NCBI GenBank assembly: GCA_963707025.1
Contig: CAVPOM010000014.1
Location: 261,424-325,423, forward strand
DNA length: 64,000 bases
Reading direction: 5' to 3'
From: an uncultured Verrucomicrobiae bacterium
GTDB lineage: Bacteria > Verrucomicrobiota > Verrucomicrobiia > Limisphaerales > Palsa-1400
The position numbers were made by a program, and so were the translations under genes. Of this stretch, positions 16,860-64,000 are shown one piece after another. Within the stretch, counting starts at the first letter, position 1. Each line of letters opens with the position of its first letter. Under the pieces are notes generated by a model that saw nothing but the letters and a program-made list of their open reading frames with translations, had not been told where the DNA came from and made no database searches.

Positions 16860-16896
16860 AAAAAACACCTTGATTGGGCTTGATTGGGCCTAATCT
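16860..16896. repeat. dispersed TTGATTRGGC-repeat; unoccupied copy of the IME target site
   Basis: 32/37 identity to the reconstructed attB (46987-47021 + 63999-64000). Confidence 0.7.
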
Positions 16897-17617
16897 GGAA
16901 AACTCCTTTTTGAGCGCAAATGGTTCATGGAAAGGTACTTCCATTGATTTTCCGCAGAAATGCGCAAAAGGCCCGAGGCGGGTCCGAAACCAAAGGAATT
17001 CACCACGGATTTCGGGGATTTCACGGATAAGAAAGACCTTTCATCGCCAAGAGCCCAGGACGGCAAGACGCCGAGCCAGAAAAGACTCTTAGCGCCCTTG
17101 GCCTTTGCGTGAAAACAACACGGTGAGACACCATTGGGGGGGCCGTGGCGCATGGTTCCATCGTTGGTCATGGTTAAACAAGTGGTTTGACCGGTTTGAC
17201 CGGACGGAGACAACGGCAAAAGGCCGCCTGGGCGGAATCCTGGTCCCGTCGCCGTCCGCTGCCACTGTTGCCCTTCCCTGCTCACTATGCAAATTTTAGC
17301 ATGTAAATTCGGGCTGTCAAGGGATATATGCGGATTTTCGCAAGGCCCTGATCATCGCCCGCTGGCGCACTGATGCGGACTTGATTGAGGATAATGAGCT
17401 TTCCGCGGAACCAGGGCGCGGTGCAGGCACCGGCGACGTTGCAGCCGGCGCCCGGTACAGTTTCCTGAACATAGGCGGTTCCTGGTTCCACATTGCCGCG
17501 CGGTTCTCCATGCAATGGTAAATGCAAAAAGTCATGGGTGACAATTTTCCGTTTTCCAGGGCATCCTGTTTTGTTTCCTCAGTTGCCGCCGAGGCGATTC
17601 TCCTGTAGAAATTTCCC

Positions 17618-45921: not shown

Positions 45922-46911
45922 TCAGGTCAGATCTTTGTGCCGGATTTGCACTTCGAGTATTTCCACAAAGGGAATCATCTCGTCCGCCGTGGCGTTTTCC
46001 TTGAACACTTGCAGGTAAAGTTCGGCCGGGGTGATGCGGGTAATGCGTTTGCCAACGAAGTCGCCGCGGGTGGACTTGATGTGGATGAGCAGATCCTTGT
46101 CCGCCCCGCTCAAGACCACCCGGAAAAATCCAGCCAGCTTGGTTTCAAAAAAGCGGCGGTTGAAGGAGAAATCGCCGCGCGGAAACACCAGCGGCGCGGG
46201 CAATTCCGCCTGGGCGGGCGCGGCGGCGGCGGGGCTTGGGCCGGGCGCCTCCGGAGGGGAGAACGATGGGAAGCCCTCCGCCGCCATGGGCGCGGCGGTG
46301 GCAGGCGAGGCGGGCGCGCAGGACGGCGGAACCGCCTCGGCGCCGGAGGGGGAAGATGCGTCGTCCGCGGAGGAGCGCGTGGGCAGGGCCAGGAAATAGA
46401 TGGAACTGGCCACTCCGAAGACGGGGATGGCGGCCAGGCCGCAGACCGTGGCCAAGGGTTGATGGCGAAAAACGGCGATTTCGTAAGCGGCGAAAAGATT
46501 GGCTCCATAGAGAATCAGGAGCATCAACCAACCGAGGGGACTGGTCAAAATGGCCAGAATCCCCAGATGCCCGGAGGGCCGGACGGGGGTCTCAATCGGT
46601 TTAACGGTGATCTGGCGAAACTTGGCCTTCTCCGAAGGAGTCTCGTTCGGAACCATCGGTTCGACCACGGCCCGGTCATGGGGATTTTTGGCCTCGTCCC
46701 GCAGTTGCCGCAGGGCCTCGTCGGTGAATCTGCCCCAGGAAAGGCGCGGCAAGTAGGAGTCTTCCCCCGTTTTGAGCAAAACACCGGTGTCGTCGTAACT
46801 GATGGGCTCGCCGGAAACGCGGGTGCCGTCGGTCAAGGTATAGGTGCCGGCGTTGGCCCTGAGCCACAGCAGGCCCATCCACAGCCCGATAATGAATCCA
46901 ATCCTGCGCAT
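45922..46911 (-). CDS. hypothetical membrane protein
   Basis: signal peptide, TM pair, Pro/Ala linker, C-terminal domain. Confidence 0.75.
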   Translation of the reverse strand: MRRIGFIIGLWMGLLWLRANAGTYTLTDGTRVSGEPISYDDTGVLLKTGEDSYLPRLSWGRFTDEALRQLRDEAKNPHDRAVVEPMVPNETPSEKAKFRQITVKPIETPVRPSGHLGILAILTSPLGWLMLLILYGANLFAAYEIAVFRHQPLATVCGLAAIPVFGVASSIYFLALPTRSSADDASSPSGAEAVPPSCAPASPATAAPMAAEGFPSFSPPEAPGPSPAAAAPAQAELPAPLVFPRGDFSFNRRFFETKLAGFFRVVLSGADKDLLIHIKSTRGDFVGKRITRITPAELYLQVFKENATADEMIPFVEILEVQIRHKDLT

Positions 46912-47062
46912 GTCTGATGTAATGTGCGGTGAGCCGTGGCAAAGTTCAATCTGTAAAATAAAGCGATTCTCACCGCCAGCGAACATAAAAAATACCTTGA
47001 TTAGGCTTGATTAGGCTTCATTGAACGTGTGGTTTACATAAAACATAAACTATGCTATAATT

Positions 47063-48715
47063 ATGGATACGATAATGAAACGTAACGCTTACAGCTATAT
47101 TCGCTTCTCCAGTCAGGCGCAAGCCCAGGGGGATTCCTTCCGCCGCCAGATGGCCCGGACGGTGGAGTTCTGTGAAAAACACGATTTGATTCTCAACGAA
47201 ACCCGCTACGAAGATTTGGGGGTGTCGGGGTGGACGGGGGAGAACATGGAGCGCGGGGCGCTGGGGGATTTTCTCCACGCCGTCAAATCGAACAAAATTG
47301 AAAAGGGTTCGTTGTTGATCCTGGAAAATTGGGACAGATTTTCAAGGCTCAAGCCGCGCGTGGCGTACAACAAGCTGGCGGAAATCATTGAACACGGCGT
47401 TGACGTGGTGACGCTGGAAGATGGCAAGATTCACACGAAAGAGACGCTGGACGATTTCGCCACACTCGTTTCGTCCTTCGCAGTCATGCAGAGGGCGAAT
47501 GAAGAATCTTCCCGCAAAAGCGATGTGGTGGGTGCGGCCTGGGCTGCCAAGCGCAAAGCGGTGGCAGAGGGCAAAGAGATTCTGACGCGGCATTGCCCGG
47601 CCTGGCTGCGGCCCAAGGCCGACGGCAAAGGCTTCGAGTTGATACCGGAGCGTTTTAAGGTCCTCAAGCGGATATTCAGGCTGGTAAAAGAGGGCAAGGG
47701 CAAGCGGGAGATTGCGCGGACTCTGGACGGGGAAGGCGTACCGCCATGGTCGCGGGGCGAGCATTGGCGCGACAATTACATTTTGGAACTGATCAAGTCG
47801 CGGACGCTGTTGGGCGAGTTGCATCCGTTACGACGGAAGCAACCGGACAGCGAGCCAATCAAGGGCTATTATCCGGCGGCGATTGATGAGGAGACGTGGA
47901 CGGCCATCCAGCCGCGAAAAAGGGAATTCGCAGCGGGGCCGCAGTCCGTCGTGAATTTGTTTTCCGGGTTGTTGCACGATGGCTACCACCCGGATTACCT
48001 GATGAAGGTTACGGCGTCGAGCCGGGATAAGAACTACATTTACATGCAGAGCGATTATCATGCCGTTGACCCGCTTTTCACCCAGTGGCAAAAGGAGATC
48101 AAGGCAGGGCGCAAGGCCGGCCCGCGCCCGTTTTCGAGTGAGGGATTCCGGTATGGGGAATTTGAGAGGCATTTTTTGGAACATTTTGAAGACATTGACT
48201 TCCACGCAATTTTGCCGAATAAGCCGGTTGTCGAAACTGGCCGCGTTGAACATTTGCAAGCGGAAAAGAAAGCCAACGAAAAGGCGCTGGCGAATTTGCT
48301 CAAGGCGCTGGAAACGGGGGAAGAATCGGCGGTGGTGATGGGGCAAATCAAGAAACGGGAAGCGGCGGCGGGCCGGCTGGCGCGGGAAGTGGCGGTGGAA
48401 ACTCAACGATTGAAAGCGGAGCGTCACGCGGTGGACAGTTTCCAGGAGGAGCAGCAGCGGTTGACGGAACTGATGGCCGGATCGAGCCGTGAGGCCCGGC
48501 TGGCCTTGCGGGCGTTGTTCCACCGCATTATCGAGCGGATTGACTTTTTTGTTGCTGGATTGTTTGAAGTGCCGTCGGACATGAAAGTGCATGTTGACCC
48601 AAAGCACTACGGCATGACGTGCTACAGCGTGACACTGGTTGGCGGGTACAAGATGTGGATATGGTGGGATGGCTTGCAAATTTGGGAAGAGCCGAATCCA
48701 CCAAAGCCGGTCTGA
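47063..48715 (+). CDS. large serine recombinase
   Basis: YSYIRFSS (catalytic Ser), EDLGVSG, ENWDRFSR, YYPAAID, coiled coil. Confidence 0.93.
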   Translation: MDTIMKRNAYSYIRFSSQAQAQGDSFRRQMARTVEFCEKHDLILNETRYEDLGVSGWTGENMERGALGDFLHAVKSNKIEKGSLLILENWDRFSRLKPRVAYNKLAEIIEHGVDVVTLEDGKIHTKETLDDFATLVSSFAVMQRANEESSRKSDVVGAAWAAKRKAVAEGKEILTRHCPAWLRPKADGKGFELIPERFKVLKRIFRLVKEGKGKREIARTLDGEGVPPWSRGEHWRDNYILELIKSRTLLGELHPLRRKQPDSEPIKGYYPAAIDEETWTAIQPRKREFAAGPQSVVNLFSGLLHDGYHPDYLMKVTASSRDKNYIYMQSDYHAVDPLFTQWQKEIKAGRKAGPRPFSSEGFRYGEFERHFLEHFEDIDFHAILPNKPVVETGRVEHLQAEKKANEKALANLLKALETGEESAVVMGQIKKREAAAGRLAREVAVETQRLKAERHAVDSFQEEQQRLTELMAGSSREARLALRALFHRIIERIDFFVAGLFEVPSDMKVHVDPKHYGMTCYSVTLVGGYKMWIWWDGLQIWEEPNPPKPV

Positions 48716-49049
48716 GACAGGCCGCATAATTGGGAAGGGCGCGAAGGGTTAGCGGCATCGGAGTCCAGAGGGTGCGCCCTCTGGCGGGTGGGGTGTGGGG
48801 CGGAAGTCACCGCCCCACTGAAAACCAAACTGCGGGCACTCGGGCGGACCATTTTCCTTTCCGCCTACCGGAAAGGGGCGAAGCGTACAGGCCAGCGCGA
48901 GCGGAATTGGAGTCCATGAGGGCTTGCCCTCTGGCGCGGGTCTGGGCCGGCGTGAGGCCCGGCGCCGGGGTTTGGGGACGGCGCAAGTCCCCAACGACGG
49001 AAAAATGGCTGAACTGCTGCCAGTCCAGCCGTATGGGTGTTTCTGACGG

Positions 49050-49451
49050 TCAATCCTCCCCCAACATCATCAGGGTGATGGCGGGCTGCGGGTCGTCAAT
49101 GTCGAGCGGGCCGCAAACGGCGGTCAACCTGACAAGTCGAGGGGCGCGGTTGTCGTTGCGGACGTACAACGCAACCGGCAAGCGGTCGCAACCGGGGCGG
49201 CTGCGGAGGATGGCGAACCGTGTCATTGTCATTAGGTCCCAGAGGCGACCGGCTTCGTCCTGGCCGGCCACGCCTGGCGGCACGGTCACGTAAGCATCAT
49301 AAACGGCGCGGGTGAGAAAAACCGGAAAACGGATGCCGGCTTCCTGGGCGGTCTTGGAAACCTCAATCTGCACGCCGTCGGCAACGGCCTGTGAGCGGGT
49401 GTAAGAAAAGATGACTTCGCCAAAGGGCGAATTCTCGTTGTTCGTGTTCAT
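49050..49451 (-). CDS. DUF6573-like mobile-element protein
   Basis: VIFSYTRSQAVADG...QDEAGRLWD; family name from recall. Confidence 0.75.
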   Translation of the reverse strand: MNTNNENSPFGEVIFSYTRSQAVADGVQIEVSKTAQEAGIRFPVFLTRAVYDAYVTVPPGVAGQDEAGRLWDLMTMTRFAILRSRPGCDRLPVALYVRNDNRAPRLVRLTAVCGPLDIDDPQPAITLMMLGED

Positions 49452-49456
49452 GGTTT

Positions 49457-49678
49457 TTAGCGGTTAAGGATGGGGACTTCGGACTGTGGAGAGATACGAA
49501 CCAAACCGGGTTTGGGTTGAATGCGGACACGCACGCCCAAAAGCGTGGTGAATTCGCGGGGCTGCTTGGTGACGGCGACAACGGCGGAACAATCGCTGAC
49601 ACGGACAACGCGACACGGCTTGCCGTCCAGGCGGATGACATCGCCAGCATGGAGACGGAATAGATAAACGGTTTTCAT
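49457..49678 (-). CDS. small hypothetical protein (SH3-like beta pattern)
   Basis: LHAGDVIRLDGKPCRVVRVS; start overlaps upstream stop. Confidence 0.65.
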   Translation of the reverse strand: MKTVYLFRLHAGDVIRLDGKPCRVVRVSDCSAVVAVTKQPREFTTLLGVRVRIQPKPGLVRISPQSEVPILNR

Positions 49679-49884
49679 TTGGAATTTTGAGAAACAAACA
49701 AACGCGCTTGCGCGGATTCTGCGGCACGGTGGGCGCGGTCGGCTTCGGCTCGCTCTCGGGCAAGACGATCTCCGTCCAAACCGGTTTGGAGTGCGAGATT
49801 GAAGGTGGCCGGGGCAAACAAAAACTCATGCTGGGGGAGTGGCAAGCGCCGTCTGTTTCTTTTCATGGGGTGGTGTCCAGTCAA
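49675..49884 (-). CDS. small hypothetical protein
   Basis: overlaps both neighbours by 4 nt. Confidence 0.55.
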   Translation of the reverse strand: MTGHHPMKRNRRRLPLPQHEFLFAPATFNLALQTGLDGDRLARERAEADRAHRAAESAQARLFVSQNSK

Positions 49885-50276
49885 GCGGGTTTCGTGTCTG
49901 CCGGGAAGAAGGTCTGATATTTGTCGCGGGGGTCACGGTGGCTGCCGGTGACAAACTGGCCGCAAGGGTGCTGCCAAGCCTGGCGTTTCCGATTCCAATG
50001 GAAACCAAACTGAGACAGGGCGGCGGTAATCTCTGGCGGCTGGCGGTCGTCAAACTGAATCCAAACCCATTTGCCAACTACCTGCGCCAATTCCCAAAAG
50101 CGCGGGGTCTCGTGATAAAGCATGTCCAAGAGTTTTTCCGTGGAAAGTCCACGGTTCTTAAATCGGAGTTTGAAATCAATCCGATGCGGTTGTTCTGCAT
50201 CCGCAGTTTTTGAAACCGACGATGGCCGGACATTCGCCGGTGCTGACGCTTCAATTTTTAGATGTGTTGTTTTCAT
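49881..50276 (-). CDS. hypothetical protein with VGxWVW...GFxWxxKRxAW motif
   Basis: aromatic/basic motif recalled from plasmid/phage proteins; first gene of the operon. Confidence 0.7.
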   Translation of the reverse strand: MKTTHLKIEASAPANVRPSSVSKTADAEQPHRIDFKLRFKNRGLSTEKLLDMLYHETPRFWELAQVVGKWVWIQFDDRQPPEITAALSQFGFHWNRKRQAWQHPCGQFVTGSHRDPRDKYQTFFPADTKPA

Positions 50277-51177
50277 AGCTTTTTTTTTGAACCGCTGTCC
50301 GTCACCCTGCCGTTTGCTGCTCGCTTCACCTGATTGGGAGACAGCGATGCCGTGCGCGAAGTGCATTCAACCCCCAGCGAAAGCTAAAACCGTGACAGTG
50401 GCGAAAGGGCAAAGGGGAGACGCTGGCGCGGTTTTTGATCTCGCTCCTCGACTCGGCTCGGTGTCGGACAAGCGAGCAGCAAATGGCGGGGTGATGGCGT
50501 GCGAAAAAAAAGGCGCAGAAAACAACCTGAATGAGGCGGGCAGACGGGTAATTGCCTCACACTATCGCGGAGCGGCGGGGTTGGCGGGGTTCATGCCGGG
50601 GCCGGGGGCGGGCATGAAACATGACAGACGCGCGTAATCAGGATTCCCCGGCTCCGTTGTGAATTTCCAAAGCCGTGAGCGAAACGGAGCGTTTGGGCTG
50701 GCCGCCCGCGTAGGGGAAAGGGTCGCGGAGCGGACGGACCAAAAAGCGGAGTGGAGCGGCGGATTTGGAAATTCATCAAGGGAGCTTCAACGGGGGAGCC
50801 AAGTCTTGCCGGGTTTGGCGGCGTAGTCTCAACGAGGGGAAGCCAAAGCCGGCAAGTCTTGGCGACAGGGCGGGGCAATGGGGCGAGTAGGGGGCACGCG
50901 GGGGCCGCGATTTCTTGTCGCTCAACCTGAAAGGCCCGGAGTGGAGCGGTCGGCCATTTGCGTAGGCCCAGACGCGCAGTGCGAGCGGAGCGAGACCGAG
51001 CATCGTAGCCGGAGCAAATGGGCGAAGGAGCGGAACGGAGAGGCTTTCAGGCTGAGGGACAAGCTCGAATCGGGGGCGGCCTGAGTGCGTCGGTTTTGCG
51101 GAGCGTAGCCGGAGGGTGGCGGGGGAGCGGAGCGAAAGCGAAAGCCGCCGCTCTCAGGACGCTGGAAAAATGGTGAT

Positions 51178-54100
51178 TCACCGTTGAAGAGACTTCAATG
51201 CATCAAAGGAGCGACGAACTTCCGGCAGCGGGTCGGATGCGCACAAGCTTCGCCACAACAGTATAGGGGATGGCTCCGAAGCACCGGGATAGGATTTGCC
51301 ATACCAGAGCGCAAGCGATCCCGCCAGTGTGCCAACAAGCATGCGCAAATCCGGACGTTTGGTCTCCGGATAGTCGCCACTTTGTTCATCTTCAATGGGG
51401 ATCATTAGCGCATGGTGCCAAGTAACCAAACTGGCAGAAATCAGGGTGGCTTGTTGTAGATTGATTTTCTCTGGTTTCTCGACGATTAGATAAGACAAAT
51501 GATAAAGGCAATAAATGGCCCCGGCCTTACGACGAAAAACTACCCGTTCAATAAGAGTTTGGAGGAGAAGTGGCGGGGGAACGGGAACCCGCCCGGCGTC
51601 AGAAAGATGAATCCAGTGACGTGTAGCCTTAGCGGCAGCGGCAACCGCGTCTTCAATGTCTGAATTCAAGTCCTGTAAGATTGTGTCACCTATGTTTGGG
51701 GCATCACCTGGACGTTGTATCAAAATGTAGGGGAGCGCGACTGTCGGAAACGCACGAACATCGCGCATTTCCCGAAGCCAGTTGGTTAATTGTTGCCAGC
51801 GGGCATCGTTCGCTCGCTCCATGGTGGGGATAATCGCCCGCGCCAAGAATTGACCCATCTTTCCGAGCGTACACATGACTGCGTCTTTCCCGCTGTTTCC
51901 GAACGGCCCACTTGGAATTGCGATCTTGAATATCTCCTTATCATTTGCCCACCAATCTAGCGCCTTCAAATACAGGGAGTTTGATTCGTCAGGAGTCCAA
52001 TCCAATCCGCCAACCTCTTCCGATGCAAGCTGAATGATTGGTTTTGAGGCTGCTAACGCCTCCGTGATGAGGGGTTCAGCCTCGTTCCATTTAGCAGTAA
52101 TAGTGAGGCGACCTGCGGCATTTCGCGTGACCACACGCTGCGCAGGAAGTGACAAAATTCGACTCTTAACGGCAGCATGTACATCAATGCCTGCGGGTGC
52201 AGGAAGATGAAGGAATCCATACACGGCAAAGTTGGGCAGCGCAGGAAGATCGCTGCCGATTCTTCGGCTCCATAGCAACTCGCCAAATTGGATGCTTTGG
52301 GCGGCTGTCATTATGTTGATATGATAGACACTAATCAGCCGCATGATGGCCCTGATCCAGCCTTCACCGGATTCACTCGCGGCTCTCCTGAGAAGCCAGT
52401 CGGTCGCATCATTGATCTTTGGCACGAGGTCCGGGGTGTTATTTTTTGCTGCCTCCTCCAGGCCCCGTCTTGATAGGAAATGTTGCATCGGATCGGGCCA
52501 TGTTTGGTTTGGCGGCAAATATGGATGAATGCCCTTCTCAAGAAGCGGCGACTTGATCAAGGCTGGGAGCCACTCCAAAAGCAATACAGCATCAGCCGCC
52601 TCAAATAATCGCTTAAACCACGGTTCGCTGGATTTATGTAAGACATCGTGAGCTCGCACAAGCGGGTGTTCATGTAACTGAAGAACGATCGGGAAAGCAT
52701 TTCTGAGGTCCGAAGCTTCCACCTTGAAAGCCAGCCGCGATAACACCTCCGGCAGCAGCTCAAGTAGTGATACCTGTAAGGAGTCCATGGCGACATGTCC
52801 AGACAATGAAGCTATTTCCCGTTCCAAAATCCGCAAACACCAATGATACAGTCGTTTGGCGAGAGCGGAATCCATGGCTACCACACGAGGTCGACAGAGA
52901 AAGTCATCATTTTTAATGGCGCTTACCTTGCCTGCACGAATTAAAAGCGCTGGACTCCAAAAACCAATGAATGGCGCAATCCAGCGGCACGCGTTTTTTA
53001 GGGCGTCTCCTGCAATATCGAGATACGGAAGGCGCATTGGCAGTCCCACTTGTTCGTAGAGCCGAATGCAGGCAAAGGCCGGCAAATGTGATCCAATCGG
53101 GTCGGTAGGCCAGCGTCTTGAAATGCTGGCCTCTCCAGGATCGAAGCTTTGGACTTCTTCCTCCAACTTTTGCATTCGCGGAGGTGGTGCAGACAAAATC
53201 TGCTCGAAATAGTCTTTGTGAGGCCAAGGGTTGCAATCCCAAGCCTTGAGTTCGTCCCATCGGTCCCCGAACTCTTCACGGACAATTGGATGCCTTTCAA
53301 AATTGAGGGCAGTTTCGACCATATAAAGGAGATACGTACACCATCCTTCCAAGGAAAGGAGTTCGATGTTCCGCCCCTGATTTCGCAGAGACCTTCTTAT
53401 TTCCAGCAGTGCAGTTCGAAGAATTGTCCTCGATTCGCCTAATGCATCGGATTCCGCCAACAAGCCGGCTTTCCAAATGGCCGCAAGAGGCGAACCTGGC
53501 GAAGGAATCCATTGCGCCATGATCGCTTTAAGTGATTCGCGTTCGACGTTCCAAGTTGCCCAAAGTGCCTCCTCATAGCAGATCCTGTCCGCATATTTCG
53601 GATTTTCCTCCACCAGTTGGCGAATCTTTGTTTTCAACGCCTCCCATCGAGCACTATTGTAAGTTTCCCGTGCTTCCCTAAGCAAGCCAAACGCAATGCT
53701 AAACCAAGCATCAATGACCTCAAAATTCGGATCAGAACAATGCGCGAGATTTTCTACCAATGGGCTAAGTGGTCGCCCCGCGACGGCTTCTCCAAAAACA
53801 TCGTTGAACGCCCTTTCAAATGGCTCAATAATCTCCGGAAAGAGTGGTACAAAGGCAGTTTCAAACCGCCAATTGATCTCACGAAACAGTAATATCCTGT
53901 CAGCCGCAGCCCAATCTTTCGTGGTATGAACGAGCAGCCCCGTCCAGTATTTTGTATTTTGCCAAAGAGTGGACCGTTTGCCTTCGGGAGCAACAACCCA
54001 ACCTGGGTACTTCACCCGCTCAAATCGCCAGCGCGCCAGTATGTCTGCCACATTCTGCGATGTCAGGGGCGTTCGATGATCATGCGCTAATCCAATGGGA

Positions 54101-55077
54101 TCGGGGATGACATCTCCGAAATCAAGGATTGGAGGACTGTTCTTCGGAATGGCTACCGAAACACGCACGAAGTTGGGCCACTTCTCGGGTCTTGGCTTTC
54201 TTGCCGAGGCGAGATTCATTAAAAACCACTCAATCGAAGCTTCGTGAATTCCCTTTGTGGTGTGAACACCCGAAAATAAAGGCCCCAAATCAATCGGAGT
54301 CACACCGCGATGCATAAGCAGTGAACGTCCGCCATCGTTTAACATCAGCGGGCCGACTAAGTAGAAAGGGGAATGGTTTCCAACAAGTTCGTCTCGAATC
54401 CAACCTGTCCACGCCAAAAAGTTCGGATCGTTTCCAGAAAATCCAAGGAGCACAATTGAGTTCTCCAGTAATGATTGCTGGACCGAATTGACGAAAGGGG
54501 CAAATGCCCTTGGGTACGTCCGATAATCCTCCTCCGATATAATGAACGGGGTTTGCGAGGGAAATGAACCGTGGAGCTTGACTATTCGCGGAGCGAACGC
54601 CGTCGTCAACTCACTGGCCTTGATGACTGGTTGATATGTCCTACCATCAACTTCTGTTCGTTCAAGTAGGGTATCGTAGTTGGTGGTAAAAACGTCCGCC
54701 CATGGTAGCTGCAAAAGCAAACGGTGAAGCTTTCCGGGCTGATGGTCGGAATCAGGGATTTGACTGCGAATTAGGAGATGCAGTTTATGCTTACCGAACG
54801 CGGCTTCATACTCGCTCGCAATTCTAAGCGCATTTGCGTTGCTAAAATGCGCCTCTCTTGCTGTTTGCTCACTGCTGTCGCCAGGTAGGACGGGATGCAA
54901 TTCATCGAACATCGATCGGGTTAACTGCGGCCATGTGGGAAATCGTGTTGAGATACCCGGCAGTGGCTCTGCGTTGAGGCTAAATCCTGCACCGACCATG
55001 ACCGAGGCTCTGGATTTCGGCCAGAGCCAAAGATCCTGTTGCAGGTGCCGCAAATGTGTCGAGTCTGGGAATGTCAT
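51178..55077 (-). CDS. SIR2-domain protein, DSR-like (putative anti-phage NADase)
   Basis: VGAGFS, TTNYD, KLHGS, GFSGNDPNF, then ~1000-aa helical C-terminus; visibly lower GC. Confidence 0.88.
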   Translation of the reverse strand: MTFPDSTHLRHLQQDLWLWPKSRASVMVGAGFSLNAEPLPGISTRFPTWPQLTRSMFDELHPVLPGDSSEQTAREAHFSNANALRIASEYEAAFGKHKLHLLIRSQIPDSDHQPGKLHRLLLQLPWADVFTTNYDTLLERTEVDGRTYQPVIKASELTTAFAPRIVKLHGSFPSQTPFIISEEDYRTYPRAFAPFVNSVQQSLLENSIVLLGFSGNDPNFLAWTGWIRDELVGNHSPFYLVGPLMLNDGGRSLLMHRGVTPIDLGPLFSGVHTTKGIHEASIEWFLMNLASARKPRPEKWPNFVRVSVAIPKNSPPILDFGDVIPDPIGLAHDHRTPLTSQNVADILARWRFERVKYPGWVVAPEGKRSTLWQNTKYWTGLLVHTTKDWAAADRILLFREINWRFETAFVPLFPEIIEPFERAFNDVFGEAVAGRPLSPLVENLAHCSDPNFEVIDAWFSIAFGLLREARETYNSARWEALKTKIRQLVEENPKYADRICYEEALWATWNVERESLKAIMAQWIPSPGSPLAAIWKAGLLAESDALGESRTILRTALLEIRRSLRNQGRNIELLSLEGWCTYLLYMVETALNFERHPIVREEFGDRWDELKAWDCNPWPHKDYFEQILSAPPPRMQKLEEEVQSFDPGEASISRRWPTDPIGSHLPAFACIRLYEQVGLPMRLPYLDIAGDALKNACRWIAPFIGFWSPALLIRAGKVSAIKNDDFLCRPRVVAMDSALAKRLYHWCLRILEREIASLSGHVAMDSLQVSLLELLPEVLSRLAFKVEASDLRNAFPIVLQLHEHPLVRAHDVLHKSSEPWFKRLFEAADAVLLLEWLPALIKSPLLEKGIHPYLPPNQTWPDPMQHFLSRRGLEEAAKNNTPDLVPKINDATDWLLRRAASESGEGWIRAIMRLISVYHINIMTAAQSIQFGELLWSRRIGSDLPALPNFAVYGFLHLPAPAGIDVHAAVKSRILSLPAQRVVTRNAAGRLTITAKWNEAEPLITEALAASKPIIQLASEEVGGLDWTPDESNSLYLKALDWWANDKEIFKIAIPSGPFGNSGKDAVMCTLGKMGQFLARAIIPTMERANDARWQQLTNWLREMRDVRAFPTVALPYILIQRPGDAPNIGDTILQDLNSDIEDAVAAAAKATRHWIHLSDAGRVPVPPPLLLQTLIERVVFRRKAGAIYCLYHLSYLIVEKPEKINLQQATLISASLVTWHHALMIPIEDEQSGDYPETKRPDLRMLVGTLAGSLALWYGKSYPGASEPSPILLWRSLCASDPLPEVRRSFDALKSLQR

Positions 55078-57941
55078 ATCGGCTCCTGTTTGGATGTTGG
55101 AATAGTCTGTCTCGAGTATAACCGCAAATTACGCGACTTCGGTTTGGTGGGTAACAGCGGTGCGATCATCTTCTCGTAGAGGGAAAAAAGGAATTCGACA
55201 CGTTCCCGGTCAGAGCGGAAAGGTTCAGATCGGTAGCATTGCTCCACCGCCCGGTCCAGTTCTGCGTGGGCGCGAACAAGCATGGGCGGCATCCTCAAAG
55301 GATCGTAAATGTCTGCGAGCGTAGCCGTGCCGCGCGGCGGAAGGTGCGGCTCCCTTGCAGCGAGAACGGCGAGCGCCTTTTCCTCCACTCTATTGCGCTT
55401 GGCAGTGGTGACGTTCGGCCAAGGGAAATTGTTGTACACCAGACTATTTGAGTAGCGATACCGGGACTCCAACCGCCCACAGATTTGGCGCACCCATGCC
55501 ATGTGCATGGTGGATGACAGAATACCGAAGTGAAACGGCTCTGCGCCCTCGCAAAAATAAATCTCCGATGCTATGATTGTTTCAGACGGTAGAAAAGCAA
55601 TAGGAATATATTTTCTGCGTTCAGAGGATGTTTTTGGAATTGCGAGAAAGCGCTTTGTGGGTTGACGAAGTTCAGCGAAGACAGATGGTTCAGACGCCTT
55701 TTCTCTGGTCGGTGCCTTTTTGCTGGCAAGCCGGAAGTCTCGTACCGCCGAAATCCTCTCCATGACCCCAGCAAGGGCACCAAATTCGTGCGTGTTTGCA
55801 TCACGCAACCAGAGACAGTGGCGTTCAATTCCGTTGATAAAATCATCAGCACTCACATAAGGACGTATGAACTTTTTGGCGGCAGGCCATTTCTGGATAA
55901 AGCGCGCGGCCTCTCCCGGTGCAAAAATCAGATTTCCACCGTCAGTTGCTTTGCTGCCAAAGACCAGTTGGGGGACATCCGCAGAAATTGGCATTGACCT
56001 TGAGATGACAACACTGTCGCTGCCTTCGATCAAATAAGGACTGATATTTACTGCCGGTGAAATTGTGACCTTATCCGATTCGTAATCATAAATGCGCTTG
56101 CCCGGTGTATCGGAGGTCGCGAAACCAATAATGACCACATGGACATGGGCTTTACCCCGCGCCTCGCTGGCCCACGGAAATGTTCGATGCGCGAAGATAA
56201 TCTTCAGATGATATTTTGCAAAAAGCTCACCCCAGAGAATGCCGACTTGCTCCCCTTGGCTGATTGAATTTGTGGAAACGAATCCGACGTGGATTTGTGT
56301 GCCTTGGATATACTCAGCCGCTTTGAAATACCAGGCCGTAACATAGTCGAGGACACCATTTGATTTAACCTTCCCGCAAAGAACTTCCATGTCCGCCTTT
56401 TGCTCCACCGTCTGAAATTCTTTCCCAACAAACGGTGGATTGCCGAGGATGTAGCTGCATTGCTCCGGCGGCAGAATTGTTTTCCAATCGAGCCGGAGAG
56501 CATTGCCACAATGAATGTGTGGCGAGTTTTTGAGCGGCAGGCGTTGGTAAAGCTGGCCGAAAGCTTCAGACACTTTCAAGTTCATCTGGTGGTCCATGAG
56601 CCAGAGCGCCACTTCGGCAATGCGTGCCGGCCATTCGCCAATTTCGATGCCGTAGAATTGATCCACATCAACCTGGGAAAGTTTGGTGATTTCGTCCAGC
56701 GTAAGTTCCGTTTGTTTGCCGAAAAGTTCCTTGAGCGTTTGGAGTTCAAGCTGACGCAATTCGCGGTAGCCGATGACGAGAAAATTTCCACAGCCACAGG
56801 CAGGATCGAGGAAACGGAGTTTGCAGAGCTTGGCGTGGAATTCCTCCAGGCGCGCGCGGCGTCCAGTCGAGCGGTCGGCCTTGCGATTTTCAAATTCGGT
56901 GCGGAAGTCGTCCAGGAAGAGTGAGCGGATGACTTTGAGGATGTCGCGCTCGCTGGTATAGTGTGCGCCGATTTGACGGCGCTTTTTGTCATCTATGATG
57001 GATTGGAAGAGCGAGCCAAAAATGGCGGGCGAAATGCGCGACCAATCCATGCGGGTGCAGGCGAGCAGGGCGTTTCGCATGTCACGGTTGAAATCAGCAA
57101 AGCCCAGATGTTCGTTGAACAAATCGCCATTGACGTAAGGGAATTCCGCGAGTGTCTCATCAAGGTTCCTCTGGCGTTTTAGTGGCGGGGTGTTCAGGAC
57201 TTCAAAAAGCCGGGCGAGACATTGGCCCAAGTCTGAGCCGTCCGGCGCGGTGCGGTTTTCGATGAAAAGACGGAATGATTCGCGCTCGAAGATGCCGGTG
57301 TCCTCGGCAAATAGGCAGAAGAGAATACGGACAAGAAACCGTTCCAAGTCGTGGCCGGTGTAACCGCCGGCTTCAAGGGCATCGTGAAGCTCGCCCATGA
57401 TTTGGACGGCCTCAATGTTGATGGGGTCTTGTTCCTGAAATGTATGCTGCTTGTAGCCTGCGATGAACGCAAATTGATGGACATGGCGATGAAAATCGGC
57501 GAGCGGGAATTCGTACGTGACGCCACGCTTCTTGGGGGATAGCGGCAGATCGCGCTGTTCTTCCGGTTCAAGGTCATGCAAGGCAATCCGCGCAAAATCA
57601 GAAACAATGATGTACCGGGGGATGTCCTTTTTGCGGTTTTCATCGCGGGCCAGGTCTTGGATATATCGGAAGGCTTGGGATTCGGCTTTGCCCAGGTCTT
57701 TGCCAAAGCTTTTATGTTCGACAATCAGTATGCCCGGCCAGAAAAGATCAATGAAGCCGTAGTCGCCAGTAATCCGTTTGACCGGCTCCTCAAAACTGGC
57801 CACTGTGCGGCGGCGAATTCCAAAGACGGCAAAGAATTCGTCCCAAAACGATTTGCCTTCGGCCTCCTCGCGGGTTTCCCCTGCCCATTCTTTGGCAAAA
57901 CCGATGGCGTTATGGCGAATTTCATTCCATGAGATCGGCAT
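55074..57941 (-). CDS. MmeI-like type IIL restriction-modification enzyme
   Basis: FIDLFWPGILIVEHKS, GAHYTS, LDPACGCGNFL, GNPPF, SSERRKYIPI, VYNNFPWP. Confidence 0.93.
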   Translation of the reverse strand: MPISWNEIRHNAIGFAKEWAGETREEAEGKSFWDEFFAVFGIRRRTVASFEEPVKRITGDYGFIDLFWPGILIVEHKSFGKDLGKAESQAFRYIQDLARDENRKKDIPRYIIVSDFARIALHDLEPEEQRDLPLSPKKRGVTYEFPLADFHRHVHQFAFIAGYKQHTFQEQDPINIEAVQIMGELHDALEAGGYTGHDLERFLVRILFCLFAEDTGIFERESFRLFIENRTAPDGSDLGQCLARLFEVLNTPPLKRQRNLDETLAEFPYVNGDLFNEHLGFADFNRDMRNALLACTRMDWSRISPAIFGSLFQSIIDDKKRRQIGAHYTSERDILKVIRSLFLDDFRTEFENRKADRSTGRRARLEEFHAKLCKLRFLDPACGCGNFLVIGYRELRQLELQTLKELFGKQTELTLDEITKLSQVDVDQFYGIEIGEWPARIAEVALWLMDHQMNLKVSEAFGQLYQRLPLKNSPHIHCGNALRLDWKTILPPEQCSYILGNPPFVGKEFQTVEQKADMEVLCGKVKSNGVLDYVTAWYFKAAEYIQGTQIHVGFVSTNSISQGEQVGILWGELFAKYHLKIIFAHRTFPWASEARGKAHVHVVIIGFATSDTPGKRIYDYESDKVTISPAVNISPYLIEGSDSVVISRSMPISADVPQLVFGSKATDGGNLIFAPGEAARFIQKWPAAKKFIRPYVSADDFINGIERHCLWLRDANTHEFGALAGVMERISAVRDFRLASKKAPTREKASEPSVFAELRQPTKRFLAIPKTSSERRKYIPIAFLPSETIIASEIYFCEGAEPFHFGILSSTMHMAWVRQICGRLESRYRYSNSLVYNNFPWPNVTTAKRNRVEEKALAVLAAREPHLPPRGTATLADIYDPLRMPPMLVRAHAELDRAVEQCYRSEPFRSDRERVEFLFSLYEKMIAPLLPTKPKSRNLRLYSRQTIPTSKQEPI

Positions 57942-57977
57942 GACGGAGGAGTGTGCTCCGATGTGTCGCCGCCGTCA

Positions 57978-58011
57978 ATGCTCTTGGTTCTGTCATGCTC
58001 TTGGTTCTGTC
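57978..58011. repeat. perfect 17-bp tandem duplication ATGCTCTTGGTTCTGTC
   Basis: 57978-57994 and 57995-58011. Confidence 0.85.
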
Positions 58012-58919
58012 GGGTGGTGCGGCGGTTTCGTTGGGCACTCGCTGGCATTTCGGCTGCGGTGCGATGGGTGTGGGGGCGCGACACAGGCGATTTGCCCATA
58101 ATGAAGCGAAGCGAAATGACCCCAAAACCCCGCCGCTGATTCCCTCCCGATGCGGAGCGTCCGGCGTGGAATTGGGAGTGCAGGGGGATTTAGCAGTCCC
58201 GGTGACACGGCGGCGCGAAGCTGGTCAAGGCTGCTGGCCCTGGCCGGGGTGCGGGGCCGCGATGTTCCGACTTCTGAAGGCCGGGTGAGACGGGGGCCGT
58301 CGCCTGGTGGGTGGTGGGCAGGCGTAAGGCCACCGGCTTGCCCGGACCGGCCAGAGGTCGGATTGATGTTGGGGGCGTTGTGAGGGCGGAAGTTTCGGCA
58401 AGGCCCTGATGCGCGGCGTGCCGGCTGATGGGACTTGGCGAAAGCTTACGCGCTCATGGCGCCGGGGCAGCCTGTCTTCGACGATTTGAGACGGTGTAAC
58501 GGCGTGGAATGGAAGCGCGGGCCGGTGGAGAGGTTCACCGGGCGGCGCTGGAATGGAGCGGCGTGGAACCGGCTTGAATTGGCGAAGTCAGGCCGCTTCC
58601 CCAGCCGATGTGTCGTTGCGACTCATCGGCGGTTGCCTTCATGAAAAACATTGGAGGCTTGATTTCCGCCAGGGAGCAGCCATCCTCGTTTCAAAAGATT
58701 GGCTGCCGCCGATGCGGATGCGACGGTGCCCTTATCTGGAAACGAACCCAATTGAAAATTGATACCGAGCCGCCCAACGACGGCCTGACTGTACAAAAAA
58801 ATAGGGCAACCCTTTCGGATCACCCAATCGCAATTGCGAGAAGTTGCAATACATATCGGCCATTTGGCCCTGAAAATCAAGCCCTATTTTAAGAATTTTC
58901 GACCCCCTTTCACAGCCTT

Positions 58920-59594
58920 ATGTCCGAAGCCAACCCACCGCCCCAACTCAAAAAGCGCTGCACCATCTACGTGGATGGGTTCAACTGGTACTTTGGCATA
59001 TTCCAGCACCATCCGGCGTGGAAATGGCTGAATGTCCAGTCGTTTTTTGAGGCGTTGCGGCTGGACGAGGATGTTGTTGCCGTCAAATTTTTCACGGCGC
59101 TGGTCGATCCATTAAAGCATGTGAGTACCCGGCGTGACCGCCAGAAACGCTACATGAGGGCGCTCGGCACGCTGCCGAAAGTGAAGATCATTCTGGGCAA
59201 ATATCAGGAGCGCACTGTCACCTGCCGGGCGCATGATTGTATGCGCCGGCTGGAATACCAGGTGCCGGAGGAAAAAAAGACCGATGTGAACATGGCGGTC
59301 AATGTGCTGGAAGACGCCTTTCGGGGGCTGACCGACTCGATGGTGATTGTGTCCGGCGACTCCGATCTTGAACCCGCCGTCGAATGGGTGCGCCGGAATT
59401 ATCCGCAGATAAAAATTACGGTGTACATCCCGGTTTTGGAGGATGAGCGCGAAGAGCGCCGCAACCACAATTATCACCGGATGGGAGTGACCTGCAAACC
59501 ACTCCCGCTGGCAGACATCCCGCGCCATGTATTCCCGGCCACGGTTCGCGTGAACGAAAACGAAACGATCACCCGTCCTGACGAATGGATTTGA
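58920..59594 (+). CDS. NYN-domain (LabA/DUF88, PIN-like) nuclease
   Basis: IYVDGFNWY, EEKKTDVNM, VSGDSDL. Confidence 0.9.
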   Translation: MSEANPPPQLKKRCTIYVDGFNWYFGIFQHHPAWKWLNVQSFFEALRLDEDVVAVKFFTALVDPLKHVSTRRDRQKRYMRALGTLPKVKIILGKYQERTVTCRAHDCMRRLEYQVPEEKKTDVNMAVNVLEDAFRGLTDSMVIVSGDSDLEPAVEWVRRNYPQIKITVYIPVLEDEREERRNHNYHRMGVTCKPLPLADIPRHVFPATVRVNENETITRPDEWI

Positions 59595-59664
59595 ATTGCG
59601 CCAAGGCTCTGACGGTGGCAGCGGCAACGGTTGAGAGGCATTCCAAAGCCGCCTGATTTCCTCG

Positions 59665-61179
59665 TCACTCCCCCCGCTTCCGCATGGGAATGGCAACTAC
59701 TGTATGGCCCCGCAAGGTTGGTTCAAAATTATTCTGGTCAAAGCGAAGGCGCAAACCCGGCTTGCCGTTGCTAAATCTTTTGCCGGCCTTGGTCAGGATG
59801 GCCGTGACCTCAAAACCATTGGCCTGGCCGCCGGTTTTTAAATCTGTGGCGGCGTCGGGCGACACCCAGTATTCATCCGCCCAATGCTCGGCTTCGGAAT
59901 GGGTGGTTTTGCCGCGGCCAAATTGAGAGGTCGTGCTTACTTGCGTCACCCGGTGCTTGCCAATGCTGTCAGAAAAAGCTCTCCGGGTTTCTTCATGGCT
60001 GCACTGGCAGAGCACCTGGGTTTTCAAGCAGGCGCACAACGATTGCACCCGGTGCTGTCCGGCGCTCCCCGCCGACTCCGCAAGATAGTTGCTCCTGTTC
60101 TGAGTCAAATATACCGTGGCGCAATGGGCGCTCCGGGCCGTCGTTTGAAAAAGTTGGTCGTAATCCGTGACGAAGTAATGCGCCTCGTCCGAAAAAAGGA
60201 ACACGGGGCGTTTGCGGTCCGCCCGTCGCTGCAAGGCAAGCTGGACACAAAATTTCCAAACAATCGAAGCGAACCGCCCGGCGGCATGATAATCCAGGAC
60301 GGGCAGATTCACGATCACGATTTTGCCCCGGAAAATGTCGTCCGGGCTGACGGTCGTGTCGCCGCCAAACATCTGGTGCATGAGGCCGGTGCAAAAATGA
60401 TGCGCCACCCCTGCGCTGAACGTGGCGACAATGCTTTGGCGGGTTTTGTCGGGCAGCACGGGAAAGTCCCGGAGCCAATAGGTTTCAGCCATCCTAAAAT
60501 CATGACTGCCGTTTGCGTGGCCGTGCCTGCCCGCCTCAATCAGTTCCCAGCACTTCGATTGCGCCTGCCATTGCACGTCCTTCGCCTGGTCCCGCGAGAG
60601 TGGACCGGACTGAATGATTTCTTTGGCGAGCAACATGCCGGGCGTGGCTCCCGCCGCAACGATCAGGTCCAGCGTGTGACCGATCAGCACCTCGGCGGAC
60701 TGTTTCCAAAACGGGTCGCCGCCTGCCGCGTCATGCTGCGCCATGTTGACTAATTCGGTGAGGATGCGGGTGGCGTTTTTGCTGCCCACTTTCAACCGTG
60801 CGCCGTGCGCCAGTTCATACGCCAGAAAGTTAAAACAACCGCCATCCGGCCCAAAGAAAACGGCGTCTTCCATGCGCCCGTTCTCTGCGAGGTTGCGCCG
60901 CCATTCGTCCGTATCCTCCGGCTTCACCGTCAGCACCAGCCCGCCGTAGCCGGCCCGCAGCATCGCGGCGGCCGTCACCCGCGCAATGGTCGAGCTTTTG
61001 CCGGAGCCGATGTCGCCCCACACCTGCATTCCCTCGTATGATTCTTCGATAGTCCACACGTCCCGATTATTCCACCTTATGAGCGCCCGCCGTCCGTCCC
61101 ACGGCTGCATCGGCGGGGCGAGAAACAAGCTGCTGACGAAGGCAAGCAGCTTGCCAATATACTGCATTAACAAGTTCAT
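59665..61179 (-). CDS. VirD4/TraD-like coupling ATPase
   Basis: GDIGSGKS, FLFSDEAH, ARS...YLTQN. Confidence 0.8.
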   Translation of the reverse strand: MNLLMQYIGKLLAFVSSLFLAPPMQPWDGRRALIRWNNRDVWTIEESYEGMQVWGDIGSGKSSTIARVTAAAMLRAGYGGLVLTVKPEDTDEWRRNLAENGRMEDAVFFGPDGGCFNFLAYELAHGARLKVGSKNATRILTELVNMAQHDAAGGDPFWKQSAEVLIGHTLDLIVAAGATPGMLLAKEIIQSGPLSRDQAKDVQWQAQSKCWELIEAGRHGHANGSHDFRMAETYWLRDFPVLPDKTRQSIVATFSAGVAHHFCTGLMHQMFGGDTTVSPDDIFRGKIVIVNLPVLDYHAAGRFASIVWKFCVQLALQRRADRKRPVFLFSDEAHYFVTDYDQLFQTTARSAHCATVYLTQNRSNYLAESAGSAGQHRVQSLCACLKTQVLCQCSHEETRRAFSDSIGKHRVTQVSTTSQFGRGKTTHSEAEHWADEYWVSPDAATDLKTGGQANGFEVTAILTKAGKRFSNGKPGLRLRFDQNNFEPTLRGHTVVAIPMRKRGE

Positions 61180-61207
61180 AGTTTTTATCCTTTCGTGTTT
61201 AGTTGAC

Positions 61208-61549
61208 TTACAGGTTCACCGACGGCGTCAGGCGCGGCATCATCGGCTTGGCCGCTGCGCTCTCGTTGCCGGGGGGTTGCGCCTCGCCGCCCGTTTTCTT
61301 TGCGCGGGGGCTGCTGCGCTCCTTCTTCTCCATCCGCAAAAAGCGCCCCACCGTGTCTTTGCTGACCGCGACCTGGCACTGCGCCAGCATGGCCGCGATT
61401 TCCCCGGTGCTTGCGCCCTTCCTTTCAAGTTCAATAATTTCCTCCCGCAACGGCATCAAGAGCGCGAACTTGCCGCGCAAGGGCCGCTCATAATCGGCGG
61501 CGAGCGAGCGAAGCTGCTCCTTCACGGCGTCCATATTTAATTGAGTCAT
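61208..61549 (-). CDS. small wHTH-like protein, TraK/StbA-like candidate
   Basis: LREEIIELERKGASTGEIAAML...VSKDTVGRFL; lies in the relaxase operon. Confidence 0.6.
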   Translation of the reverse strand: MTQLNMDAVKEQLRSLAADYERPLRGKFALLMPLREEIIELERKGASTGEIAAMLAQCQVAVSKDTVGRFLRMEKKERSSPRAKKTGGEAQPPGNESAAAKPMMPRLTPSVNL

Positions 61550-61629
61550 ATCGTTTCCTTTCCATTGTCCTGCTCGCGGCTGCCGCGGCGGCGCTTTGCC
61601 GCCGCGCCAAGCAGTCCTAACGCCGTGCG

Positions 61630-61986
61630 TTAGGAGATGGTGTCCTCTCTTGTTCCCCGTCCCTGGAACACCCCCAACACCATCTCCTTCGCTTGGGCTA
61701 CCAGCTTCCGCCAGCCTTTGAGGTGGCGACGATTGATCAACTCAACATCAAACATGACTCCCTGGCTGGTGCAGTAGCAGATGAGGTAGGACAGCAGGAT
61801 GTCGCCCTCGTCCTGGCTGGCCGCAATGATGAGTTCCGTCAGCGCCCAGAGATTGGCTGGAGTCAACGGCTCCGTGCCAGCGACCATCGCCGCCGCCAAA
61901 GCCGCCATCTTTGGGTCGGCCCGGCGAGCGGTGGCACGCGCCAGCGCCAGGAAGTCGGCGTTAATTGTTAGATTTAATGTTTTCAT
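61630..61986 (-). CDS. hypothetical protein
   Basis: 118-aa ORF in mob operon. Confidence 0.6.
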   Translation of the reverse strand: MKTLNLTINADFLALARATARRADPKMAALAAAMVAGTEPLTPANLWALTELIIAASQDEGDILLSYLICYCTSQGVMFDVELINRRHLKGWRKLVAQAKEMVLGVFQGRGTREDTIS

Positions 61987-61990
61987 AGGA

Positions 61991-62335
61991 TTACTCCGAT
62001 TTTTGAGAGCCTTCCGCTACTGTGATTTCGCGGACGGCGGGGGTTGTTTGGGTGCCATTCGATTGCGATTGCCCGCCGCCCACTCGAATGACTTCTGCCC
62101 GCCCCTTCTGGATCACCAAAAGGAGCGGCAAAAGCTGGGTGCCCCGGATGGTCACGGTATGCGTGACGTAGAGCAGGGTGAGAGTGTCCAGACTGGCGCC
62201 CGCCGGCGTCGGGGCGTGATGCGCAAACAACAGCCCGGAATAGGGCAAAACAAACGCGCCGTGCTGGCCGGTCTCAAAGCGGGTGAACAGGTTTTGTTCG
62301 GCGGTCTCGTAACAGGATTTGGATTCGTCGCTCAT
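61991..62335 (-). CDS. hypothetical protein
   Basis: starts 4 nt after the relaxase stop (MSDESKSC..., LPYSGLL). Confidence 0.65.
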   Translation of the reverse strand: MSDESKSCYETAEQNLFTRFETGQHGAFVLPYSGLLFAHHAPTPAGASLDTLTLLYVTHTVTIRGTQLLPLLLVIQKGRAEVIRVGGGQSQSNGTQTTPAVREITVAEGSQKSE

Positions 62336-62339
62336 GGGA

Positions 62340-63512
62340 TTACCGGGCAAGGGATGGCCTGCCGCGTTGCTGGCCGTAACGCTGGGCCTTGCGAATAAAC
62401 CGGGCGGCGTAATAGATTCGCTGCGGGAAAGAGAAGGTCGGGCTGAATGTGTAGGGATTGATGCCCACGGCGCGGACTGCCAGCAACGCCAGACGCACGC
62501 CGGCAATCCAGTCCAACTCCGGGGCGGCGACAATGCCCGGTTGCCGGCGCGGGGCCAAAGGCCGGGTCAAGGGCAGGCGCGGGCCGGCCAGCGCCAGCGC
62601 CTTCACGCGCTCCAACTGCCGGCGCTCCTCGGCGGACAACTGCGCAAGCTGGATTTTCCGCAACGCCTGCGGGGCAATATGCCGTTGCTTTTTGGCCCGG
62701 TTTTGGTGGACAACCCTGGACACCTCGCCCTTGCTCAAGGGCCGCCCTAATTCCTGCGCCCGCAACGCCACCAGCGCGTCCCGTTGCGCGGCCCGCTTGG
62801 AAAACCGCGACATCACGGCGGCGTCAACGCCGCGTATTTGCACGCAACGGTGCCGGTCAAGGTAGGTGTCGTAACCCAGCGCATGCAGGGATTCGGCCAA
62901 GTGCGCCCGGTAAAGTTGCGTCAGGTCCTGGGCGTGGTCGTAAAATGGACGCGCTTCCAAAGCCTTCATCCGCTTCTCCACCGGGTCAAAGGTGACGTTG
63001 AAAACAACGCAATGATGGTGCAACTGCGGATCAAGGGCGCGGCTTTCGCGGTGCGGGAAAATGGCGCAAACCATGTTGCCCGTGACGCGGCTTTGCCTGG
63101 TGTCCGCCGCCGTGCCTTTGCGCACGCGCACGGCGGCCAGTTGCTCGGCGGCTTCCAAGGTGGCGGTTACGGCCTTATCGTGGGCGGCAATAAGGCGCTC
63201 GTCCCCGGCCACCAGCGCCATGACGGAGAGCGATTTTGGCGCGGAGATGGTTAAATCATACACACAGCGCCGGTGGGCCGCCATCCGCTGCGTCAACCGC
63301 GTGCCGTCACCGGGCCGCAACCCCCGGCAGAGGGCCACAAAGTCCGCCTGCCGCACCGGGGCCTGACGGTCAAGGCCCAGCGCCTCGCACCCCCGGCCAT
63401 ACCACCGCCCCGGCGTGTGCTGCTGCTCGTCGTAATAGTCGTCGCGCGACAGGTCCTCCCTAAAATAGACCTCCTCATTCGGGGACGACTTCTGTGCTTT
63501 GATCGCAAGCAT
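62340..63512 (-). CDS. mobF: MobF (TrwC-type) relaxase without helicase domain
   Basis: YF...DDYY, GRWYGRG, YDLTISAPKSLS, HRESRALDPQLHHH, FSKR. Confidence 0.93.
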   Translation of the reverse strand: MLAIKAQKSSPNEEVYFREDLSRDDYYDEQQHTPGRWYGRGCEALGLDRQAPVRQADFVALCRGLRPGDGTRLTQRMAAHRRCVYDLTISAPKSLSVMALVAGDERLIAAHDKAVTATLEAAEQLAAVRVRKGTAADTRQSRVTGNMVCAIFPHRESRALDPQLHHHCVVFNVTFDPVEKRMKALEARPFYDHAQDLTQLYRAHLAESLHALGYDTYLDRHRCVQIRGVDAAVMSRFSKRAAQRDALVALRAQELGRPLSKGEVSRVVHQNRAKKQRHIAPQALRKIQLAQLSAEERRQLERVKALALAGPRLPLTRPLAPRRQPGIVAAPELDWIAGVRLALLAVRAVGINPYTFSPTFSFPQRIYYAARFIRKAQRYGQQRGRPSLAR

Positions 63513-63522
63513 GGCTTTGACC

Positions 63523-63625
63523 GTGGCGCAGTTTCAAGCCGGGCAGCCCCACCAGGGAGCCTGCCAACTGTCGGCAAAACTGCGCCACTCTACCTATCAT
63601 TGTAGGGCGGGCAGGGTGTGTCGCT
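63523..63625. promoter_or_regulatory. candidate oriT / relaxase control region
   Basis: 12-bp IR GTGGCGCAGTTT (63523-34)/AAACTGCGCCAC (63577-88); GCGGGCAGGGTGTG resembles F-type nic. Confidence 0.4.
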
Positions 63626-64000
63626 GCGATCAAGCCGCTCATTTTTCTAAAAAAAGTGGCAAAACATGTGGAAATCTATATTGAAATTCCCCATCCTCCT
63701 CAGCAGACAGTCAAAATTGACCCGCTCAAAGCTGCCTTTCCTCTACCTTCAACTCGCGTGGCGGGGATGGCGGTGGATTCCATGTTGCAAAGGCGGCATG
63801 GGTGAGCGCCACCGCAATGCCTGGCAAGAAGTCGGAAAACGGCCAAAGCCCGCCAATAGTGTCAATACTATTGTTACCAGCATGGCCTGTGTCAGACGGC
63901 CCCAACCTGCCGTTTTATTTTGAAAAATTCGTCGAAATAATTCTTGTATTCAGTGGGCAGGTGTGCGAAAATACTATTCAGTAGATCGCACGTTCAATCT

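Follow-up and report, generated by a model that had tools for sequence, protein, structure and literature searches.

Large serine recombinases (LSRs) integrate DNA by recombining attP with attB across a 2-bp crossover, and most of those described are either single-site or, as in the DUF4368 clade, loosely specific. The REP13E12 repeat of M. tuberculosis is a coding repeat of kilobase size present in few copies. This repeat holds the attB of the serine integrase of phiRv1 (Rv1586c; PMC9317374). Multi-targeting LSRs have been reported as well, including Cp36, Pc01, Enc9, MTI1 and a TndX-like clade, 63% of which carry DUF4368, while MTI1 needs little besides TT (PMC10083194, PMC13137831); the first of these papers explicitly allows that some LSRs evolved toward multi-copy target sequences, and the second describes elements in two copies within their native hosts. 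Tn4451 and Tn4453 are low-specificity integrative mobilisable elements (IMEs) with serine recombinases (PMC5704250), and among insertion sequences (IS) there are REP-targeting members such as ISPa11 (PMC11187229) and ISPpu9 (PMC8450116). Here we analyze the final 64 kb of a contig from an uncultured Verrucomicrobiae bacterium (CAVPOM010000014.1, positions 261,424–325,423; henceforth "the window", 64,000 nt), in which an LSR-encoding IME occupies a copy of a dispersed repeat that we term repeat A. Genomes are labeled G### (G000 being the source genome), contigs C# (the window ends where C14 stops, at position 64000), loci L### and Logan runs X#.

We consider it likely that this enzyme is a multi-targeting but motif-driven LSR carried by an IME, and that its motif falls mostly in dispersed repeats of the host. 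The clade to which it belongs falls between the two described kinds of LSRs: each genome offers it tens of well-defined sites between genes. The IME itself (~17.0 kb) is real: its gene content comprises the defining integrase, a MobF relaxase above cut-off and TrwB/TraD matches. Together with the junctions, this bears out the proposal of an earlier note, made from the sequence of the window alone, that the region is an IME of the serine-recombinase type, whose att sites can be read and whose attP is an inverted repeat. The junction strings quoted there and the repeat copy at 16860 are found at their given positions. The features on which the argument depends are:

46987–47016, + strand: attL host side (B arm), the left portion of a repeat A copy (A-run and tandem 10-mers)
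47017–47018, + strand: attL crossover core dinucleotide TT, its register taken from attL/attR of G020, attL/attR of G319 and the empty orthologue of L028
47019–47037, + strand: attL element arm P', inverted match 15/19 with 63981–63999
47033–47061, + strand: sigma-70-like promoter, 11/12 plus TG extension (consensus match only)
47063–48715, + strand: LSR of 550 aa with Resolvase and Recombinase domains, a cysteine-free zinc-ribbon region and a coiled coil
63981–63999, + strand: attR element arm P, 14 nt identical in G020 attR
64000, + strand: first base of the attR core, where C14 ends (second base and host flank inferred from the start of C5)
16860–16974, + strand: unoccupied repeat A copy (C14:278283–278397), flagged in the earlier note

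Judged by comparison of junction sequences, the crossover core is TT at 47017–47018/64000–64001, and hence is not palindromic. In G020, which encodes a 67% homologue, the two junctions lie ~41.7 kb from each other on a single contig; they have AC in common, centered in inverted arms, and this register places the window core at the two positions above. A 100% identical LSR is found at another locus, L028, whose orthologous site in G000 (C15:~245464) is empty; the filled and empty sequences diverge right after the TT register, which is consistent only with TT. The two junctions of G319 come from different contigs; in this register they have TA in common, and jointly they rebuild the start of a gene. 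Around TT the arms of the window element are inverted at 15/19 positions, giving a quasi-symmetric attP with a 2-bp core and no long direct repeat. Among the Logan contigs listed, two begin at 47016 (X1, X9) and one X1 contig ends one base beyond 64000, as expected if several different flanks have only the core in common; other copies of the repeat may account for three loose ends that X1 shows behind 47018 (agreement 0.73). The runs holding the window stretch are mainly from peat. A candidate attR in G361 was dropped, as its core and flank did not fit, and the flanking DNA retrieved for the metagenome loci yielded no attR.

Counting copies genome-wide confirmed that the target of the window element is a multi-copy intergenic sequence. 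Repeat A has 44 nhmmer matches in G000, each up to ~128 nt long and together spanning 5,468 bp of 6.96 Mb; copy numbers, here and below, refer to the genomes G000 and G020 and to the genus set. A 30-nt probe with at most 7 mismatches hits 26 places in G000 versus 0, 0 and 0 in three shuffled genomes. The midpoints of repeat A lie mostly between genes, with 6/44 inside open reading frames (ORFs) of at least 250 aa, compared to 1513/2000 random points. The repeat is present in four of the five congeneric genomes. REP/REPIN sequences are short repeats, palindromic or in inverted pairs, that flank a cognate RAYT gene; repeat A is tandem rather than palindromic and without an Rfam match, and inspection by eye showed no copies of it flanking the 10 Y1_Tnp matches of G000. 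Further short tandem-repeat families lie beside the 16860 copy (16998–17030 and 17160–17210), and intergenic regions of this genome are mosaics of several repeats.

The targets of related enzymes were read from 26 metagenome loci, of which 19 have a readable left junction and seven lack upstream DNA; merging duplicates and adding the genome loci gave 22 distinct left junctions. Related loci and duplicate samples cannot be treated as independent, and the tallies that follow are therefore counts and not statistics. The TT core occurs at three junctions, two in repeat A and one (L028) in another repeat, C. One of these loci, L032, encodes an LSR 99% identical over 158 aa and sits in another repeat-A-like copy, so that LSRs 99–100% identical occupy three different sites, and the integration at multiple sites anticipated in the earlier note is upheld. 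Under the multi-targeting definition of Durrant, the TT cluster has three read sites and one inferred site (see below); these are intergenic, and the gene-cluster criterion is not directly applicable to them. Of the distinct junctions with an AC core, 15/15 lie in a repeat of the form CCAC(A/G)GATnnnC|AC. In G020 this exact pattern occurs 49 times, against 0 for its reversed control, and often as inverted pairs ~50 bp apart. Three junctions have a TA core: one is in a single-copy gene, and two are in Y1-transposase genes in opposite orientations (L038:9960 and L045:2293, with LSRs 94% identical and apparently at the same position of the gene; Pfam match from L038). The remaining junction (L044) has an AA core. 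One genome contains two element copies, L020 and L021, which are 95% identical and lie at different sites. The idea of one multi-copy repeat as the target proves too narrow: at L028 the same recombinase is found in a second repeat family, unrelated to repeat A, and the TA-core relative in G319 occupies a single-copy gene. A ~1.5-kb sequence at L086:15023–16539 has ~50 copies in G000 and is probably an IS.

The right flank of the element lies beyond the end of C14. In G019, G020 and G009 the gene at 45922–46911 has as its neighbor the YjeF/Nnr gene found close to the beginning of C5, and intergenic DNA of G003 matches the C5 start in four collinear blocks. C5 was chosen as the next contig because of this gene synteny, and most likely it follows C14 with two bases missing between them. 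The start of C5 lies inside repeat A, in agreement with the earlier prediction of repeat sequence past 64000; it is, however, unlike the sequence from 16897 onward that had been expected there. Two other contigs were considered and rejected: C17 begins like 16897 but is unsupported in the G003 comparison, whereas C15 fits base for base but neighbors C10 in G003. The end of C10 falls on the TT of a repeat A copy within which C15 begins, and in G003 the genes of these two contigs are neighbors; this suggests that the C10/C15 break may be a fourth site for near-identical recombinases, within G000 itself. The assembly of G000 contains one copy of the LSR gene, and a second element copy or an assembly-collapsed strain variant would probably explain both the C10/C15 and the C14/C5 breaks. 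About 160 bp beyond the putative attR there is an RVT_1 reverse-transcriptase gene (C5:441–1955); in G020, a related ORF is located immediately to the left of attL.

Several observations weigh against the interpretation of a motif-driven enzyme directed mostly to dispersed repeats. L028 sits not in repeat A but in repeat C, of which there are only 4 full copies, the TA-core site of G319 is a single-copy gene, and the flank of the AA-core junction L044 is unclassified. Both junctions were obtained for G020 and G319 only, those of G319 on two contigs. The right flank of the window element is placed by synteny in three of four long-contig relatives, with an assumed gap of two bases; in the fourth, G015, the arrangement differs and the 45922–46911 gene is not beside the YjeF/Nnr gene. 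Finally, there is no circle (attP) junction among the 15 Logan joints listed of 52.

Mechanistically, LSR dimers would bind attP and a repeat copy serving as attB, cut flanking the 2-bp core, rotate and religate. As TT is not self-complementary, the orientation of the window element would be fixed relative to the repeat, while a TA core allows both orientations, which matches those seen. Excision would yield a circle of ~16,983 bp. Transfer could be accomplished by the MOBF relaxase and the coupling protein through the mating pore of another element; no type IV secretion system genes (mating-pair families) matched among the 12 element ORFs scanned. The promoter at 47033–47061 overlaps the outer P' arm immediately upstream of the recombinase (1 found, versus a mean of 0.6 and sd of 0.8 in shuffles), and it may serve in self-regulation.

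In evolutionary terms, core and target have switched together across the clade: TT goes with repeats A and C, AC with CCAC(A/G)GATnnnC|AC, and TA with the Y1-transposase gene and one ordinary gene. It is tempting to speculate, with a little less than even confidence, that these integrases form an undescribed, zinc-ligand-free lineage specialized on dispersed repeats of the host as renewable landing pads, retargeted at least two times between unrelated repeat families (and to a transposase gene) by joint change of core and binding specificity, with attP arms that come to resemble the repeat. If this is true, the clade would offer natural, orthogonal, orientation-controlled multi-copy integrases carrying 17–42 kb defense islands.

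A less likely alternative, to which we would give perhaps one chance among several, is that specificity is simply relaxed: the enzyme would recognize a short degenerate motif like an attP half, and repeats would be hit because they bear the motif and are harmless, so that survivors accumulate without any adaptation. Every TT site does have at least one half-site resembling an attP half-site, a pattern of just the core and the right half matches 634 places in G000, 38 of them in repeat A, and the TA subclade uses a short common motif in two unrelated genes. On the other hand, the 6.96 Mb contain only 26 matches to the motif that all TT sites share, 17 of which are in repeat A, a count that is circular because the motif was derived from the TT sites themselves, and AC-core enzymes with identities down to ~47–53% keep one repeat in 15/15 cases.

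It is very improbable that the repeats were partly made or spread by the elements, as att scars or co-mobilized pieces, rather than being pre-existing targets in the host. Such an origin would fit the element arms of the AC-core loci L041, L043, L088 and L090, which start like the right half of the repeat itself, and the lack of repeat A at orthologous positions in G019, G020 and G009 as well as between the C10/C15 genes in G003. Repeat A, however, with its ~128 nt far exceeds an att site, and element arms accompany none of its other copies (a single match for the left arm; for the right arm a single match and a further one with 5 mismatches); moreover, none of the congeners, four of five of which have repeat A, matched the clade.

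The model of the earlier note, a palindromic AT core (47020–21/63997–98) permitting either orientation, is hardly credible: its arms are symmetric too (13/16, correct by inspection) and its rejoined site matches 16860–16896 at 32/37, which we recomputed exactly, but AT is missing from the empty L028 orthologue and its three paralogues, G020 and G319 set the core three bases to the left, where the arms match at 15/19, and in the AT register the relatives would fail to rebuild their repeat or gene. The CT that had been taken as host sequence past the right junction consists of the final base of the element arm and the first core base, its match to 16895–16896 being coincidental, and insertion in both orientations is seen in the TA-core sister subclade instead.

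Returning to a motif-driven LSR, the protein itself has a catalytic domain (PF00239, E 1.9e-16) with conserved YxRxSS and RFSR motifs and an RD domain (PF07508, E 1.1e-11), but the zinc-ribbon family PF13408 gave no match. In the alignment the CxxC of the zinc ribbon is present in 0/50 clade rows versus 20/27 outer rows; the cysteine-free region is still predicted to form a beta-ribbon and long helices. A model built from 77 sequences, which replaced a poor four-sequence fold (pLDDT 49.7), has a pLDDT of 82.9, and its top Foldseek matches are serine integrase-DNA complexes (E 5e-16, TM ~0.43). A profile search in which 7999 candidates were scored delimits the clade as 61 clusters with at least 394 bits, the next score being 301. 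It is present in 5/401 genomes of the order, and the related loci bear the tool-assigned name Verrucomicrobia subdivision 3. Six homologues from viral contigs (31–41% identity; two inspected) fall outside the clade, and scanning viral contigs for the pattern turned up 0 matches; distant homologues (28–40%) were given no att sites. A 21-row tree (without L003 and L004, which were too short, and L088–L090, which were not included) supports the pair with TA cores and the main group with AC cores and leaves L043 (AC) and the deeper order unsupported. The ~41.7-kb sister element of G020 (G020:C3:713425–755186) encodes a relaxase-helicase, a coupling protein, RadC and a 2453-aa gene.

Compared with the described systems, the element shares with phiRv1 an LSR attB in a repeated chromosomal sequence (PMC9317374), but phiRv1 is prophage-like, whereas here we find a relaxase-bearing IME, short non-coding repeats in tens of copies and a clade that switches repeat and core. 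As in the multi-targeting LSRs, some members of which have a TT core, one enzyme cluster is found at several sites, and two copies occur in one genome; in contrast to them, the enzymes here target structured repeats whose conserved arms are long. DUF4368 is absent from our query and from the matches listed for 120 of 133 homologues, which include all 61 clade clusters; the element works in a similar way to these systems, but we do not assign it to the DUF4368/TndX-like clade. Tn4451/Tn4453 are likewise multi-copy IMEs that use one serine recombinase and a 2-bp core and show little specificity for their sites, but the host phylum is different and the relaxase here is MOBF; the portion of PMC5704250 considered here states no preference for dispersed repeats. 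REP-targeting IS likewise use intergenic repeats as abundant harmless landing sites, but these are small elements of the IS110/IS1111 family with RNA-guided DEDD enzymes, unlike a 17–42 kb element with a serine integrase. In the literature we found nothing on this clade, on LSRs in short intergenic repeats or on an LSR lineage retargeted among short non-coding repeats; this search did not extend to subscription papers and bioRxiv supplements, which could bear on novelty. Eight supplementary files of PMC10083194, which list cluster representatives only and may be incomplete, contain no "Verrucomicrobi" entries, and two clade peptides matched in these files only an unrelated proteobacterial protein. 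For large elements carrying defense genes, such targeting would be a way to spread and stack copies without gene disruption. The matched sets of enzymes and att sites (cores TT, AC and TA at 47–68% identity) provide material for studying how integrases change targets, including without zinc ligands, and possibly multi-copy integration tools for Verrucomicrobia.

The other genes of the element are:

49050–49451, − strand: DUF6573 protein
49457–50366, − strand: two small ORFs (72–73 aa and 160–161 aa) without Pfam/NCBIfam family
51178–55077, − strand: Dsr2-like SIR2 anti-phage protein, cargo (PADLOC Dsr2, E 1.8e-205)
55074–57941, − strand: MmeI-like Type IIG restriction-modification enzyme, cargo
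58920–59594, + strand: NYN-domain protein (PADLOC HEC-09, E 1.4e-42)
59665–61179, − strand: TrwB/TraD-like coupling protein
61208–62533, − strand: three small ORFs (113, 118 and 180 aa) without family
62340–63512, − strand: MOBF (TrwC) relaxase of 390 aa (NF041492 above cut-off), without a helicase domain match

No convincing direct repeats were found around the cargo, and there are 0 Rfam matches in the element and 0 in 1–46500. Runs X1–X3 lack 51661–56217 and X9 is thin there, which indicates lack of cover and is not proof that the cargo is absent. The small-ORF module at 49457–50366 also occurs in other elements of G000. More broadly, the modules at 48850–51170 and 58040–58890 have 77–94% copies at many places in G000 (C1, C2, C7, C9, C11, C12, C16) and very high Logan depth, and joints skipping ~7.4–7.7 kb suggest exchange of cargo among the places that share them. 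To the left of the element, at 43314–44244, there are two adjoining ORFs which we take to resemble an IS630-type transposase pair. Many of the contig ends of G000 (C1, C6, C7, C12, C13, C18, C4 and C14) break in tRNA-like sequence, by eye tRNA-Gly/Ser, which suggests that further elements are integrated at tRNA sites.

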